Positions 23,478-27,024 of a DNA stretch of 64,000 bases are shown one piece after another. Within the stretch, counting starts at the first letter, position 1. Each line of letters opens with the position of its first letter. The stretch lies in the NCBI GenBank assembly GCA_009015555.1, contig GCA_009015555.1_3613.1; one strand, 5' to 3'. The DNA is from a phage. The notes under the pieces were generated by a model. The model was not told the DNA's origin. It saw only the letters and a program-made list of their open reading frames with translations, and did no database searches. Made by a program: the position numbers and the translations under genes.

Positions 23478-23553
23478 GCTGGATTAGCTCAGTAGGTAGA
23501 GCGCCTCACTTGTAATGAGGATGTCGCGGGTTCGATTCCTGCATCCAGCACCA
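23478..23553 (+). tRNA. tRNA-Thr (anticodon TGT)
   Basis: Cloverleaf read by eye: acceptor gctggat/atccagc, anticodon loop cttgtaa, T-loop ttcgatt, CCA encoded. Confidence 0.8.
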
Positions 23554-23559
23554 GATCAT

Positions 23560-23636
23560 GCAACGTTGCCGGAGTCTGGTAACGGCTCTCGCTGCAAACG
23601 AGATGAGCACTGGTTCGAATCCAGTACGTTGCTCCA
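23560..23636 (+). tRNA. tRNA-Cys (anticodon GCA)
   Basis: Acceptor gcaacgt/acgttgc, anticodon stem tctcg/cgaga, loop ctgcaaa, T-loop ttcgaat, CCA. Confidence 0.75.
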
Positions 23637-23637
23637 A

Positions 23638-23714
23638 GCGCCTTTGGTCCAATTGGTAGAGGCACTACATTCAAAATGTAGGGGTTCCCAGTTCGAATCT
23701 GGGAAGGCGCACCA
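23638..23714 (+). tRNA. tRNA with CAA anticodon (Leu by anticodon) but short variable arm
   Basis: Acceptor gcgcctt/aaggcgc, anticodon stem ctaca/tgtag, loop ttcaaaa, T-arm cccag-ttcgaat-ctggg, CCA; only 5-nt variable region. Confidence 0.6.
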
Positions 23715-23730
23715 AAATTTATGTAACCTA

Positions 23731-23759
23731 TTGACATAGTGTAATTATACTGCTAATAT
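23731..23759 (+). promoter_or_regulatory. Sigma70-type promoter for the small gene embedded in the tRNA array
   Basis: TTGACA 23731-23736, 17-nt spacer, TAATAT 23754-23759, then RBS and ATG at 23786. Confidence 0.6.
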
Positions 23760-23785
23760 GGATACACTAATTCAATGGGGGCATT

Positions 23786-24160
23786 ATGAGCAAGGCTGCG
23801 ATTGTAACTCGTAAGCGTGGTCGCCCAAGCAAAGAAGAGAGCACAGCAATCGCCCTTGAAAAGGCAATGCTTGATCTCCGAGGCGAATTGGCCCGTCTGA
23901 CGCCGAAGGCCATTCATACTCTCGAAAACCTGCTCACAACAGGCACAGAGAAAGTGAAGGAAACCACGGCGAAGTATATCCTTGAGCAGGCGAAAGAGGT
24001 TAACAACCTCTATACTGAAGAGGATAACGAAGACGACGCAGCAGGCGGCACAACATCTGCCTCTTCTGAAACTCACGCTGGTTCTTCTGACGAGATGAAA
24101 AATGCCATCCCGTTGACAACCCAGATTCGTGAGTATAAAGCAGTAGGCGAAGATGATTAA
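23786..24160 (+). CDS. small protein with AT-hook-like RKRGRPSK motif (124 aa)
   Basis: Own promoter, RBS and downstream hairpin; basic N-terminus, acidic Ser/Thr-rich C-terminus. Confidence 0.5.
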   Translation: MSKAAIVTRKRGRPSKEESTAIALEKAMLDLRGELARLTPKAIHTLENLLTTGTEKVKETTAKYILEQAKEVNNLYTEEDNEDDAAGGTTSASSETHAGSSDEMKNAIPLTTQIREYKAVGEDD

Positions 24161-24162
24161 CT

Positions 24163-24190
24163 GGAAGGCTCCCGAAGGAGCCTTTATTAG
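24163..24190 (+). terminator. Terminator-like hairpin
   Basis: aaggctcccgaaggagcctt hairpin followed by tattag (weak T tract). Confidence 0.4.
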
Positions 24191-24325
24191 AAGTTCTCTT
24201 TTGACGGGCACTTGTTAACGACCCGCAGAATGACGACGGTGTACAACGGCGTTTGATGGCGAGGAAGGTCTATAGGGATCAGCGCAGATCCTTGGATGTC
24301 AGGTGAGCCGTACAAAAGAGAATTT

Positions 24326-24413
24326 GGGGAGTTATTTCCGTAGAGGTAGCGGTGCAGACTGTAAATCTGTTGTCATTGCGACTCGGGTGGTTCGACTCCA
24401 TCACTCCCCACCA
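24326..24413 (+). tRNA. tRNA-Tyr (anticodon GTA), long variable arm
   Basis: Acceptor ggggagt/actcccc, anticodon loop ctgtaaa, T-loop ttcgact, CCA. Confidence 0.75.
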
Positions 24414-24419
24414 AATTAT

Positions 24420-24514
24420 AGTAGGATGGCTGAGTGGCTTAAAGCAGCATCTTGGAAAGGTGTCGGATCAGGTAACCCCTGGTCCCGGGAGTTCAAATCT
24501 CCCTCCTACTGCCA
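24420..24514 (+). tRNA. tRNA-Ser (anticodon GGA), long variable arm
   Basis: Acceptor agtagga/tcctact, anticodon loop cttggaa, T-loop ttcaaat, CCA. Confidence 0.7.
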
Positions 24515-24518
24515 GACC

Positions 24519-24595
24519 GGATCGTTAGCTCAATTGGTTAGAGCAAGGGACTTTTAATCCCGAGGTTCGGGGTTCGAGTCCCTGACGGTCCACCA
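24519..24595 (+). tRNA. tRNA-Lys (anticodon TTT)
   Basis: Acceptor ggatcgt/acggtcc, anticodon loop cttttaa, T-loop ttcgagt, CCA. Confidence 0.75.
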
Positions 24596-24760
24596 GAAAG
24601 GAAGAGGGTCCAAGCTGGTAATGCGAGAGGCGAGTCCTCAGACCAAAGCCCAGATGGAGGCCACCCTAAAGTCGTCCAACCGAAGGTCCCTGATTGAGTA
24701 ATACTTCCCCGCTTGTCGGGTACAGTTCTCAGTCACACCGGAAGGGGCGCACCCTATAAT

Positions 24761-24836
24761 TGACGGTGAGCATATAAGGACATGCGGGGGCCTGTTAAGT
24801 CCAGGATAGCTGGTTCGAATCCAGTACCGTCAGCCA
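24761..24836 (+). tRNA. tRNA-Asn (anticodon GTT)
   Basis: Acceptor tgacggt/accgtca, D-stem gcat/atgc, anticodon loop ctgttaa, T-loop ttcgaat, CCA. Confidence 0.7.
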
Positions 24837-25345: not shown

Positions 25346-25422
25346 CGGTGTATAGCGCAGCCTGGTAGCGCATCTGGTTTGGGACCAGAGGGTCGCTGGT
25401 TCGAGTCCAGCTACACCGACCA
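25346..25422 (+). tRNA. tRNA-Pro (anticodon TGG)
   Basis: Acceptor cggtgta/tacaccg, anticodon stem tctgg/ccaga, loop tttggga, T-loop ttcgagt, CCA. Confidence 0.75.
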
Positions 25423-25428
25423 AATTAT

Positions 25429-25503
25429 TGCGAGGTAGTTCAGCGGTAGAACAGGGGTTTCATACGCCTCATGTCGGCAGTTCGATTCTGCCCTTCGCAA
25501 CCA
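25429..25503 (+). tRNA. tRNA-Met (anticodon CAT; initiator, elongator or Ile-lysidine type not distinguished)
   Basis: Acceptor tgcgagg/cttcgca, anticodon loop ttcatac, T-loop ttcgatt, CCA. Confidence 0.7.
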
Positions 25504-25509
25504 AATCAT

Positions 25510-25587
25510 GCTCCAGTAGCCCAATTGGTAGAGGCACTTGATTTAGGATCATGTCAGCGATGAGTTCGAATCTCTCCTGGAGTACCA
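25510..25587 (+). tRNA. tRNA with TAG anticodon (Leu by anticodon), short variable arm, weak T-stem
   Basis: Acceptor gctccag/ctggagt, anticodon stem cttga/tcatg, loop tttagga, T-loop ttcgaat with only ~3 bp T-stem, CCA. Confidence 0.5.
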
Positions 25588-25593
25588 CATAAA

Positions 25594-25667
25594 GCGGGCA
25601 TGGTATAGTGGTTGTGCCTTAGCCTTCCAAGCTAATGAGTCCGGTTCGATCCCGGATGTCCGCTCCA
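25594..25667 (+). tRNA. tRNA-Gly (anticodon TCC)
   Basis: Acceptor gcgggca/tgtccgc, anticodon stem ttagc/gctaa, loop cttccaa, T-loop ttcgatc, CCA. Confidence 0.75.
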
Positions 25668-25740
25668 ATTCACGGTGAGTCACTGCCGTTAAGTGTGAAG
25701 TTAAAAATGCCCGTGGTGATCGGGTTATCTCACCCAGTGT

Positions 25741-25816
25741 AGGGGATTAGTTTAATTGGTAAAACATCGGGTTTTGATCCCGACATCGCGAGGTTCGAAT
25801 CCTCCATCCCCCGCCA
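25741..25816 (+). tRNA. tRNA-Gln (anticodon TTG)
   Basis: Acceptor aggggat/atccccc (A1-C72 mismatch), anticodon stem tcggg/cccga, loop ttttgat, T-loop ttcgaat, CCA. Confidence 0.7.
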
Positions 25817-25898
25817 CATTAATGCTCATTAGCTCTTGTCAGTGGAACTCGAACCCTTAGAGCAGGCGACACAGACGTGTGTTTTAGTGAGCATCAAT

Positions 25899-25974
25899 GT
25901 GGCCTTAATTCAGCAGGTAGAATCCCCGGTTGTGAACCGGGCAGTCGTGGGTTCAAGTCCCACAGGTCACCCCA
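25899..25974 (+). tRNA. tRNA-His (anticodon GTG)
   Basis: Acceptor gtggcct/aggtcac, anticodon stem cccgg/ccggg, loop ttgtgaa, T-loop ttcaagt, CCA. Confidence 0.75.
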
Positions 25975-25978
25975 ATCT

Positions 25979-26071
25979 GGAAGATAGGGCGTAGTGGTAC
26001 GCACCCGGATTTGAACCCCGGCCCGCTGTGGCGACCCCACGGTGATAGTTCGACTCTATTATCTTCCGCCA
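25979..26071 (+). tRNA. tRNA-Ser (anticodon TGA), long variable arm
   Basis: Acceptor ggaagat/atcttcc, anticodon loop tttgaac, long variable arm, T-loop ttcgact, CCA. Confidence 0.65.
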
Positions 26072-26092
26072 CCCCTGATCATAAGGCAAACT

Positions 26093-26785
26093 ATGTTAGA
26101 AATGTTAACAGTGGGTAAATACACCCCTAGTCCTATAATTTCTAGCCCTATGGATGCTTATTTTGAGGGCGAGAGGAATAATAAATACGGCACTGTTGAG
26201 TGGGTTGTTCCTCAAGGCGTCACCTCAATCTGCTGTGTAGTGATAGGCGCAGGATCTTCTGGCAGAAGCGGCGGTCTTTCTTGGAGAAACAACATTCCAG
26301 TTACACCTGGTGAAAAACTTAAAATGCAGGTTAACTCCACAGCCAGCGCCCTCTTGAGAGAGACAACTATCCTTTGTGCTGCCCAGTGTGGCGGCAACGG
26401 AGGAAAAACATATAACTCTGTGAACGACGGTGGAGGCAATGCTGGACAATCACCACATGGTAGAGGTGGTGCTGGCGGCTACACCGGGAATGGTGGTGAT
26501 GGGCATACGTTCACAGGTGGTCCAGGACCAGGGTCCCCAGGTTCAGGTGGCGGCGGCGGCGGAGGCGCAGTTGTGTATCTGAACGGATCATTGACACCAA
26601 CTGTCTGCGGCGGAGTCGGCATGTATGGACAGGGGTCGAATGGTGGCGCTGATAACAGCGCCGGATATCCAGGCTCCGGCGGTTCTGGAACAAGATACGG
26701 AAGAGCAGTCGATGGTTATGGTGTTGTCAGGGTTGTGTGGGGAAATTATTCATTCCCAACAAATGCCCCGAGACCGAAATCCTGA
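26093..26785 (+). CDS. glycine-rich hypothetical protein (~230 aa) embedded in tRNA array
   Basis: Start taken at MLEMLTVGKY (track ORF start at 26042 lies inside tRNA-Ser); Gly-rich GGxGG runs and C-terminal GYGVVRVVWG. Confidence 0.5.
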   Translation: MLEMLTVGKYTPSPIISSPMDAYFEGERNNKYGTVEWVVPQGVTSICCVVIGAGSSGRSGGLSWRNNIPVTPGEKLKMQVNSTASALLRETTILCAAQCGGNGGKTYNSVNDGGGNAGQSPHGRGGAGGYTGNGGDGHTFTGGPGPGSPGSGGGGGGGAVVYLNGSLTPTVCGGVGMYGQGSNGGADNSAGYPGSGGSGTRYGRAVDGYGVVRVVWGNYSFPTNAPRPKS

Positions 26786-26856
26786 TAGGGATGGTCCCTA
26801 CGAGGATCGTCTTTTGCTCAGTGGTACTCAGCATTTACTTAGTATTCAAACAATAT

Positions 26857-26943
26857 AGAAGAGTGGCGAAATAGGTAGCCGCACCGGACTGCTAATCCGG
26901 GGTCCTTCGGGGCCTGAGAGTTCAAGTCTCTCCTCTTCTGCCA
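26857..26943 (+). tRNA. tRNA-Ser (anticodon GCT), long variable arm
   Basis: Acceptor agaagag/ctcttct, anticodon stem ccgga/tccgg, loop ctgctaa, T-loop ttcaagt, CCA. Confidence 0.75.
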
Positions 26944-26948
26944 AGCAT

Positions 26949-27024
26949 GGAACTGTAGCTCAGTTGGTAGAGCGGTTGCCTGAAGAGCAGCGCGTCAGCG
27001 GTTCAAATCCGTTCAGTTCCACCA
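26949..27024 (+). tRNA. tRNA-Phe (anticodon GAA)
   Basis: Acceptor ggaactg/cagttcc, D-arm gctc-agttggtaga-gagc, anticodon loop ctgaaga, T-loop ttcaaat, CCA. Confidence 0.8.

Follow-up and report, generated by a model that had tools for sequence, protein, structure and literature searches.

We analyzed a stretch of phage DNA of 64,000 nucleotides (nt), contig GCA_009015555.1_3613.1 of GenBank assembly GCA_009015555.1, referred to below in its entirety as the window. Between positions 23478 and 27024 it carries a dense array of transfer RNA (tRNA) genes with two embedded open reading frames (ORFs). An initial annotation, made from the sequence alone, had read 19 tRNA genes in this interval, and this count holds: ARAGORN, applied to the whole window, recovers 18 of them, every one on the + strand within this interval, and calls no tRNA in the remaining 60 kb or so; the nineteenth, tRNA-Tyr, is supported by covariation and by identical annotated sequences in relatives. 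The Rfam tRNA model (RF00005) confirms 17 of the 18 ARAGORN genes, with 41-74 bits against a gathering score of 29. Isotypes had also been assigned correctly, and a single tRNA-like gene, with the Trp anticodon CCA, had been missed, as it has been by all existing annotations. In total, the array comprises 19 tRNA genes, which cover 16 amino acids, and one tRNA-Trp-like gene (Table 1).

Table 1. Genes and other features of the tRNA array and its borders, in order of position, with anticodons in parentheses
Feature	Position	Strand	Description and support
tRNA-Thr(TGT)	23478..23553	+	CCA encoded; ARAGORN; RF00005 74.3 bits; anticodon arm CCTCA-CTTGTAA-TGAGG (C40G relative to E. coli thrU)
tRNA-Cys(GCA)	23560..23636	+	CCA encoded; ARAGORN; Rfam 60.2 bits
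tRNA-Leu(CAA)	23638..23714	+	class-I-like; ARAGORN; Rfam 56.5 bits
sigma-70-like promoter match	23731..23759	+	TTGACA-17-TAATAT, TG extended; upstream of embedded ORF; consensus match only
embedded ORF, 124 amino acids	23786..24160	+	N-terminal RKRGRPSK motif; phrog_3330, E 5e-39; no Pfam match
hairpin AAGGCTCC-CGAA-GGAGCCTT then TATT	24165..24188	+	read from the sequence; terminator annotated at homologous phiTE site
tRNA-Tyr(GTA)	24326..24413	+	long variable arm, A73, CCA; D-arm out of register; not called by ARAGORN
tRNA-Ser(GGA)	24420..24514	+	class II; ARAGORN; Rfam 49.4 bits
tRNA-Lys(TTT)	24519..24595	+	ARAGORN; Rfam 67.6 bits; positions 36-41 UAAUCC (A41C relative to E. coli lysT), U16 kept
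165-nt spacer	24596..24760	+	conserved in genus, partly in phiTE; no Rfam family
tRNA-Asn(GTT)	24761..24836	+	ARAGORN; Rfam 41.4 bits; positions 36-41 UAAGUC (E. coli UAAUCC)
tRNA-Glu(TTC)	24946..25023	+	ARAGORN; Rfam 54.7 bits
tRNA-Trp(CCA)-like	25031..25111	+	unannotated; covariation and covariance model
tRNA-Asp(GTC)	25118..25193	+	ARAGORN; Rfam 57.1 bits; 90.8% identity to PG7 tRNA
tRNA-Ile(GAT)	25201..25275	+	ARAGORN; Rfam 67.7 bits; allele otherwise seen only in CR3
tRNA-Pro(TGG)	25346..25422	+	ARAGORN; Rfam 67.5 bits
tRNA with CAT anticodon (Met)	25429..25503	+	ARAGORN; Rfam 60.1 bits; acceptor stem initiator-like, but U1-A72 and U11:A24
tRNA-Leu(TAG)	25510..25587	+	class-I-like, A73, G1.U72; ARAGORN; Rfam 44.1 bits
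tRNA-Gly(TCC)	25594..25667	+	ARAGORN; Rfam 51.8 bits
tRNA-Gln(TTG)	25741..25816	+	A1xC72 unpaired, G73; ARAGORN; Rfam 54.1 bits
tRNA-His(GTG)	25899..25974	+	C73, G-1 not encoded (T at -1); ARAGORN; Rfam 60.7 bits
tRNA-Ser(TGA)	25979..26071	+	class II; ARAGORN; tRNA-Sec model 31 bits
embedded ORF, 230 amino acids, glycine-rich	26093..26785	+	phrog_4474, E 9e-35; no Pfam match
tRNA-Ser(GCT)	26857..26943	+	class II; ARAGORN; Rfam 52.8 bits
tRNA-Phe(GAA)	26949..27024	+	ARAGORN; Rfam 65.8 bits
intrinsic-terminator-like hairpin GCCCTCC-TTCGT-GGAGGGC and T run	27067..27095	+	43 nt past last tRNA

Near-universal CCA ends and tight spacing had been noted initially, and both are borne out. A 3' CCA is encoded in 19 of 19 tRNA genes (at 24411-24413 in tRNA-Tyr), and spacers within blocks measure 1-7 nt (6, 1, 6, 4, 7, 6, 6, 6, 4 and 5). 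The blocks run Thr-Cys-Leu; Tyr-Ser-Lys; Asn; Glu-Trp-like-Asp-Ile; Pro-Met-Leu-Gly; Gln; His-Ser; and Ser-Phe, in addition to the two embedded ORFs. Among the matches that reached the gathering score in a first Rfam scan, tRNA-Leu(TAG) scored lowest. For tRNA-Ser(TGA) the surviving Rfam match is to the tRNA-Sec model, below the cut-off of that model, because of its long variable arm.

The array is the already-described tRNA gene cluster of the CR3-like phages (Certrevirus, Vequintavirinae): a correct rediscovery, ordinary as a category, to which we add side results of modest value. Locus, gene order and sequence all match described members of the genus, and the taxonomy lines of the matches read Vequintavirinae; Certrevirus. 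Over the 78% of the region that can be aligned, identity to Cronobacter phage CR3 is 98.3%; further matches, all in Certrevirus, are to CR8, CR9, PBES02, Enterobacter phages F1M1E-F5M1E, Klebsiella phage KaOmega and several Pectobacterium phages. Genes for ribose-phosphate pyrophosphokinase (Prs) and nicotinamide phosphoribosyltransferase (NadV) lie upstream of the array, and those for two spanins, the large terminase and the portal lie downstream; array position and gene order are constant across the Certrevirus genomes compared.

The CR3 cluster occupies the same slot (Prs/NadV and small ORFs before, spanins and terminase after), with the same order and anticodons, and 17 of 19 tRNAs are 99-100% identical. 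It differs in that its gp263 stands between the His and Ser(TGA) genes, whereas the unrelated glycine-rich ORF of the window stands between Ser(TGA) and Ser(GCT). CR3 also has an HNH endonuclease gene between Asn and Glu (L001:3320-3676; coordinates of this form refer to the loci of relatives) and, after Glu, a partial duplication that ARAGORN calls tRNA-Glu(CTC) (L001:3784-3863), both of which the window array lacks. HNH homing-endonuclease genes occur between tRNAs in CR3, PcCB7V, P7_Pc and DU_PP_I; the window array contains none, and its 109-nt spacer at 24837-24945 is common to the window and POP15.

CR3 has been annotated with 18 tRNAs, in a genus where the number ranges from 1 to 18, with 14-18 in Cronobacter phages and 1-8 in Pectobacterium phages (PMC7344957, PMC9769974). 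Two genes of the array have escaped annotation. The Trp-like gene is missed in all 21 Certrevirus records that carry it; tRNA-Ser(TGA), 100% identical in CR3, CR8, F1M1E and KaOmega, is absent from the annotations of CR3, CR8 and KaOmega. CR3 itself carries both genes unannotated. The published tRNA counts of the genus are therefore underestimates.

Most tRNAs of the array are 86-100% identical in CR3, CR8, CR9, F1M1E and KaOmega; a few slots hold alternative alleles. The relatives vary by block deletions, HNH insertions and allele replacement. At the Ile slot, for instance, the alleles of relatives other than CR3 are about 80% identical to that of the window and show compensatory stem changes, whereas the adjacent spacer is 100% identical. 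Among the alleles of the genus, per-site variability is highest in the anticodon stem (19.8%, against 13.3% in the T stem and 10.1% in the acceptor stem) and lowest in the anticodon loop (4.0%). CCA ends are nearly invariant (2 changes in 276 positions). Compensatory stem substitutions across alleles reveal selection for folded tRNAs.

ARAGORN misses tRNA-Tyr even at lowered thresholds, and the best Rfam match is again the tRNA-Sec model (32.9 bits, under its 47-bit threshold). Both fail because the D-arm is out of register: the acceptor stem of 7 base pairs (bp) is followed by a linker of 5 nt instead of two, then by a 3-bp CCG/CGG stem. A spurious 88-nt 'Cys' gene, obtained in this region with ARAGORN at relaxed thresholds, is a misfold. 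Outside the D-arm, the molecule is a normal class II tRNA-Tyr: its anticodon arm is identical to that of E. coli tyrT save position 43, and it has a long variable arm, A73 and a CCA end. Pairing in the acceptor, anticodon, variable and T helices reaches 98% over five alleles; compensatory pairs number 9, whereas slid controls give 1-3. Furthermore, the identical sequence is annotated as tRNA-Tyr in CR3, CR8 and F1M1E.

The same Tyr gene matches, at 87 of 88 positions, a tRNA-Tyr of Enterobacter phage PG7, a T4-like phage of the Straboviridae (L025:1507-1594). Together with the similarity of the Asp gene to its PG7 counterpart, this indicates that tRNA genes move between unrelated phage families, and the Tyr match implies a recent exchange between Vequintavirinae and Straboviridae phages. 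Recombination also appears at the Tyr locus of PcCB7V (L008:1833-1920), a chimera of a CR3-type 5' half and a CR9-type 3' half whose acceptor stem is unable to pair; it looks like a pseudogene made by recombination.

The Trp-like gene lies in the 94-nt gap between Glu and Asp; 21 Certrevirus records contain this conserved element, none of them with an annotation for it. Its full length can be aligned with E. coli trpT (whose sequence we verified), with which it shares the CCA anticodon in a U-turn loop, G73, the pairs A1-U72, G2-C71 and G3-C70, a TTCGAnT T loop and the CCA end. The identity set of E. coli tRNA-Trp, for which we follow PMC9976931 (CCA anticodon, G73, A1-U72), is thus complete, and it is invariant. 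The proposed cloverleaf is 87% paired and contains 5 compensatory pairs, 3 of them in the D-like hairpin; slid controls contain none. With a covariance model trained on six alleles, each of 13 Certrevirus loci yields a single match, scoring 94-108 bits, whereas phiTE and PcCB7V yield nothing in this range. Beyond these loci, the best match of the model is E. coli trpT (41.6 bits), which outscores every other tRNA in the search. A pattern scan of IMG/VR for a wider distribution gave only CR3 and two Certrevirus-like contigs.

Several features of this gene depart from the canonical fold. Acceptor positions 4:69 and 5:68 are mismatched in every sequence compared; in place of the D stem stands a 5-bp hairpin shifted about 6 nt downstream, in which GG are the sole invariant loop residues; the T stem has 4 pairs only; and the variable loop is short. 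ARAGORN does not call it and Rfam gives no match at E<=10, and because it escapes both standard detectors we call it tRNA-like rather than a canonical tRNA. The acceptor/T branch can also be drawn as 8/4, with U8-A as an eighth pair; two of the eight are then the conserved mismatches, and the eighth pair is invariant. This recalls the 8/4 tRNAs of phage tRNA clusters (Mukai et al. 2017, PMC5389517), which combine an 8-bp acceptor with a 4-bp T stem; the Trp-like gene may form such a branch, and it too lies inside a phage tRNA polycistron. The published species, however, are Ser and His tRNAs, mostly with long variable arms, whereas the present one combines a Trp anticodon with a short variable loop, two mismatched acceptor positions and a D hairpin shifted by about 6 nt. 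By its sequence and covariation, it appears to be an overlooked, structurally non-canonical gene and a new detail of the cluster.

Two Leu-anticodon tRNAs had been singled out as atypical, rightly so: both are 77-78 nt in length and have a variable region of 5-6 nt, in place of the long arm of bacterial class II tRNA-Leu (13-15 nt in E. coli leuX and leuW). Both have A73 and an E. coli-type Leu D-arm, with a 3-bp stem and a loop AATTGGTAGA matching E. coli Leu tRNAs. In Leu(CAA), the variable loop is 5 nt and the D loop 11 nt. Stems of both show compensatory changes across the genus, in all stems for Leu(CAA); Leu(TAG) has extra mismatches at 28:42, 49:65 and 50:64. E. coli leucyl-tRNA synthetase (LeuRS) needs A73, A15-U48, G18G19 and A20a, and the long arm is dispensable for leucylation (PMC9976931). 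This identity set is present in both phage tRNAs, with A15 taken from the alignment and U48 assigned by position as the last base of the variable loop. Since the set is complete and the long arm dispensable, leucylation of these short-armed tRNAs is plausible. Short-armed Leu(CAA) genes annotated as tRNA-Leu also occur in Seunavirus, T5-like and KVP40-like phages; this is thus a recurrent phage trait.

The tRNA-His combines C73 and the GUG anticodon with a T at position -1, not only in the window but in every relative sharing the allele and in the T4-like PG7 (L025:2809-2884). Aligned with E. coli hisR, it shows a one-base gap exactly at G-1, so that the encoded G-1:C73 pair is missing. G-1 is the major identity element recognized by histidyl-tRNA synthetase in E. 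coli (PMC9976931), and our literature search retrieved no paper on a phage tRNA-His lacking an encoded G-1. The short-armed yet identity-complete Leu tRNAs, the tRNA-His lacking G-1 and the tRNA-Tyr shared with a T4-like phage all appear to be new small details of the cluster. For enterobacteria, these genes offer natural cases for the rules of tRNA identity: a His gene devoid of G-1, Leu genes lacking the long arm, and Tyr and Trp-like genes whose D regions are rearranged.

At 67% identity, the tRNA with a CAT anticodon is nearer to the E. coli initiator metZ than to metT and ileX (57%), and it has the G2-C3-G4 acceptor sequence of the initiator. The hallmarks of initiator tRNA-fMet (C1xA72, three G-C pairs at 29-31:39-41 and A11:U24) are incomplete, however: the phage tRNA has G29-C41 and G30-C40 but U31.G39, along with the deviating pairs given in Table 1. 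We also considered a tRNA-Ile2 reading AUA, which is unlikely: AUA is rarer in the phage (1.3 per 1000 codons) than in the host proxies described below.

Our preferred interpretation, held with moderate confidence, is that the array provides an extra, phage-controlled supply of tRNAs, matched to the codon and amino-acid demand of the phage and supplementing the host pool. We infer that the genes would be transcribed as a few polycistronic + strand precursors: one unit with Thr, Cys and Leu and, after the 124-amino-acid ORF and its terminator, a long unit from Tyr to Phe ending at the terminator-like hairpin downstream of the array. Host ribonuclease P would cut each 5' end. Since CCA is encoded in all the tRNA genes and spacers measure 1-7 nt, host 3' exonucleases could trim the products down to CCA with no need for CCA addition. 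A CCA-adding enzyme has been reported in the literature for the genus; none is found among the 20 upstream ORFs of the window that we tested. Charging would be carried out by host synthetases, and the resulting supply would serve about two thirds of phage codons and keep phage translation fast in hosts of higher guanine plus cytosine (G+C) content.

To compare codon usage, we set 62 long ORFs of the window against the long ORFs of two host proxies of 50 kb each, one from E. coli K-12 and the other from the Cronobacter sakazakii plasmid pESA3. Of phage codons, 66-69% can be read by the tRNAs of the array; for the proxies the figure is 61-65%. In the five families that are covered in part (Leu, Pro, Ile, Thr and Gly), the phage shows a relative preference for the codons that are covered (p 0.003 and 0.010), on the assumption of E. 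coli-type wobble by uridine-5-oxyacetic acid (cmo5U). Preference is strongest for the covered codons GGA/GGG, TTG and ACA/ACT, and the uncovered TTA, ATA, CCC and CTC are avoided. At the amino-acid level, each of the nine amino acids with the strongest enrichment in the phage over pESA3 is served by a phage tRNA, and Val, Trp, Arg and Ala, which have no canonical one, are at or below parity; by hand calculation, the chance probability of this pattern is about 0.07. Relative to the E. coli proxy, the ranks of Val, Trp, Arg and Ala are unremarkable.

The distribution of tRNA numbers in the genus also fits codon supply: many tRNAs are found in phages of Cronobacter, Enterobacter and Klebsiella, and few in near-identical phages of Pectobacterium. 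The G+C content is about 57% in Cronobacter and about 51% in Pectobacterium, the latter close to the 50% of the phage. This host-linked pattern could equally reflect differing host defences. The genus forms a natural series, from 1 to 20 tRNA or tRNA-like genes in near-identical genomes on hosts of differing G+C, which could be used to separate supply from counter-defence.

Several observations weigh against codon supply. Over all 61 codons, covered codons are not significantly enriched in the phage (one-sided Mann-Whitney p 0.07-0.32); the compensation for codon mismatch suggested by the initial annotation thus finds modest support, the match reaching significance only in the partly covered families. 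Even the family-level significance depends on the wobble rule assumed. The covered codons of His and Gln, AGC of Ser and CTG of Leu are used less in the phage than in the proxies, which themselves differ from the true host. Furthermore, a sigma-70 scan revealed no promoter for the main block from Tyr to Phe. Finally, some of the tRNAs deviate from what host enzymes usually need: tRNA-His has no G-1, Leu(TAG) a weak T stem, tRNA-Tyr a shifted D-arm, and the Trp-like gene is non-canonical.

It is possible, if doubtful, that the main benefit is instead counter-defence, phage tRNAs replacing or outnumbering host tRNAs cut by PARIS/AriB, retron-Eco7 PtuAB, PrrC or colicin-type nucleases, either by abundance or through an escape sequence. 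PARIS/AriB cuts E. coli Lys(UUU), Thr(UGU) and, more weakly, Asn(GUU), at U36AAUC|A/C41; in E. coli tRNA-Lys, U39A abolishes AriB cleavage, A41C inhibits it and U16C impairs it; and T5 needs its own Lys, Thr and Asn tRNAs for escape (PMC12409363). Retron-Eco7 PtuAB depletes tRNA-Tyr, and T5-like phages escape it through an oversupply of tRNA-Tyr; a PrrC homologue, PrrC170, is overcome by phage tRNA-Lys (PMC11555353). The array encodes every one of these reported targets, namely the three isoacceptors cut by AriB, the tRNA-Tyr targeted by PtuAB, and tRNA-Lys, the target of PrrC170. At the AriB site, the window differs from E. coli by A41C in Lys, C40G in Thr, and U39G and C40U in Asn, the three sites reading UAAUCC, UAAUGA and UAAGUC. 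However, positions 39-41 differ also in most non-target tRNAs (Asp, Gln, Met, Leu), which makes these changes unspecific, and tRNA-Lys is altered at just one of the three positions of T5 escape (A41C), U16 and U39 being retained.

The high variability of the anticodon stem among alleles of the genus would also suit counter-defence; yet these alleles are not independent, and stems vary freely in any tRNA family. tRNA-Tyr is retained in the most reduced arrays (it is the sole tRNA of CB7, and phiTE annotates only Cys and Tyr), and its odd form recurs at 99% identity in an unrelated T4-like phage, both of which are in keeping with counter-defence. Against this, its anticodon arm is that of the host save position 43. 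Three reports on T5-like phages (PMC11464382, PMC11555353, PMC12409363) demonstrate by experiment that tRNAs act in counter-defence. The T5-like and T4-like arrays resemble that of the window in being dense, tightly spaced and confined to one strand and in belonging to large virulent phages of enterobacteria; Tyr and Asp are near those of PG7, and a short-armed Leu(CAA) occurs in T5-like phages. They differ in phage family and flanking genes, and in tRNA-Lys, where the window has only one of the T5 substitutions. Defence evasion, which the initial annotation had raised, is plausible, and the evidence does not discriminate between it and supply. Both ideas belong to the usual explanations offered for phage tRNAs.

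Somewhat less probable is that the array, independently of codon bias or specific nucleases, sustains late translation once host DNA is shut off or degraded and the pool of host tRNAs decays. This hypothesis, discussed in the literature (PMC11025619), would account for the broad coverage of 16 amino acids, rather than of a few rare codons, and the adjoining salvage and nuclease genes (Prs, NadV, a ThyX-like gene, a deoxynucleoside monophosphate (dNMP) kinase and exonucleases) fit a lytic lifestyle that degrades the host. But 1-8 tRNAs suffice for close relatives of the same lifestyle and gene content, and the abundant amino acids Ala, Arg and Val are left uncovered.

One may further imagine that the deviant set (Trp-like, His, the two Leu and Tyr) is deliberately maintained and translation-competent, its deviations serving to escape or decoy nucleases that read the D loop and anticodon stem; we consider this improbable. 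Most improbable is that the array is a recombination hotspot of hitch-hiking or decaying genes, many of its tRNAs being relics of little present function: high plasticity, loss of tRNA blocks in relatives, HNH genes and unrelated ORF cassettes inserted at differing slots, the chimeric broken Tyr of PcCB7V and the stem mismatches of Leu(TAG) and the Trp-like gene could be read in this way, but most tRNAs are 86-100% conserved in the lineage infecting high-G+C hosts, allele differences are compensatory in stems, CCA ends show just those 2 changes in 276 positions, and the Rfam scores of 17 genes are well over the threshold.

In phiTE, a member of the genus, this part of the genome holds the pseudo-ToxI locus, apparently within a collapsed tRNA array (L002:3040-3170). 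Upstream, the locus resembles the spacer before Asn and, downstream, the 3' half of a Phe-like tRNA (T arm, acceptor and CCA), through weak matches of 17 and 25 nt (E about 0.14). Neither the pseudo-ToxI nor the ToxI repeat has a match longer than 10 nt anywhere in the window, and no 36-nt ToxI-like repeat is found there; the longer matches of the ToxI query (17 and 25 nt) fall in the tRNA-derived flanks included in the query.

The first embedded ORF (124 amino acids) is kept in all relatives, including phiTE (phiTE_202), which lost most tRNAs. Its RKRGRPSK motif is AT-hook-like, its tail is acidic, and it lies 3.7 kb upstream of the large terminase gene; it could encode a DNA-binding protein such as a small terminase. 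The hairpin that follows is likely its terminator. The stretch from this hairpin to the Tyr gene (24189-24325) is 97-99% identical across most of the genus including phiTE, and 79-92% in CR9 and POP15, with a folding z-score of -2.0. It is more conserved than most tRNAs and probably holds a promoter or leader of the main tRNA block. Farther downstream, a TATAAT ending at 24760, abutting tRNA-Asn, is probably fortuitous.

The second embedded ORF (230 amino acids) shows no DNA or protein similarity to the ORFs found in equivalent slots of relatives. These relatives carry unrelated ORFs of 165-225 amino acids in various slots, with an N-terminal MxEMLxV-like motif, some of them annotated as virion structural or tail proteins. 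Cassette ORFs of 165-230 amino acids are located at 26093-26785 in the window and at L001:4829-5494, L003:2558-3220, L002:3175-3819 and L012:3254-3751 in relatives. They fall into at least five mutually unrelated families, and their proteins start with MLEMLTVG, MNEMMIVS, MLEIMTAA, MNELLLIG or LFEILNIS. An upstream ORF with a LamG domain (window 18551-19198) has the same motif (MNEMLMLG). From these starts, the cassettes look like swappable C-terminal domains on a common anchor.

We also examined the longer spacers (24596-24760, 24837-24945, 25276-25345, 25668-25740 and 25817-25898) as candidate structured small RNAs and rejected them: z-scores range from +0.9 to -2.05, no Rfam family matches, and there is almost no covariation. 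The 300 non-coding nt upstream of the array (23177-23477) were likewise rejected as a structured RNA, being conserved but mosaic, with an unfavourable RNAalifold covariation term. Compensatory pairs, two in number and seen in POP15, occur there only in a hairpin at 23428-23474 (TCTCCC...GGGAGA around CCGGAG...CCGG), which ends 3 nt before tRNA-Thr. Farther upstream, window positions 1-22100 encode a ThyX-like protein, a 5'-nucleotidase, a dNMP kinase, two exonucleases, endonuclease VII, a RuvC-like resolvase, an HNH endonuclease, a DNA ligase, Prs and NadV. The sign of the GC skew flips near 18 kb, where gene orientation switches.

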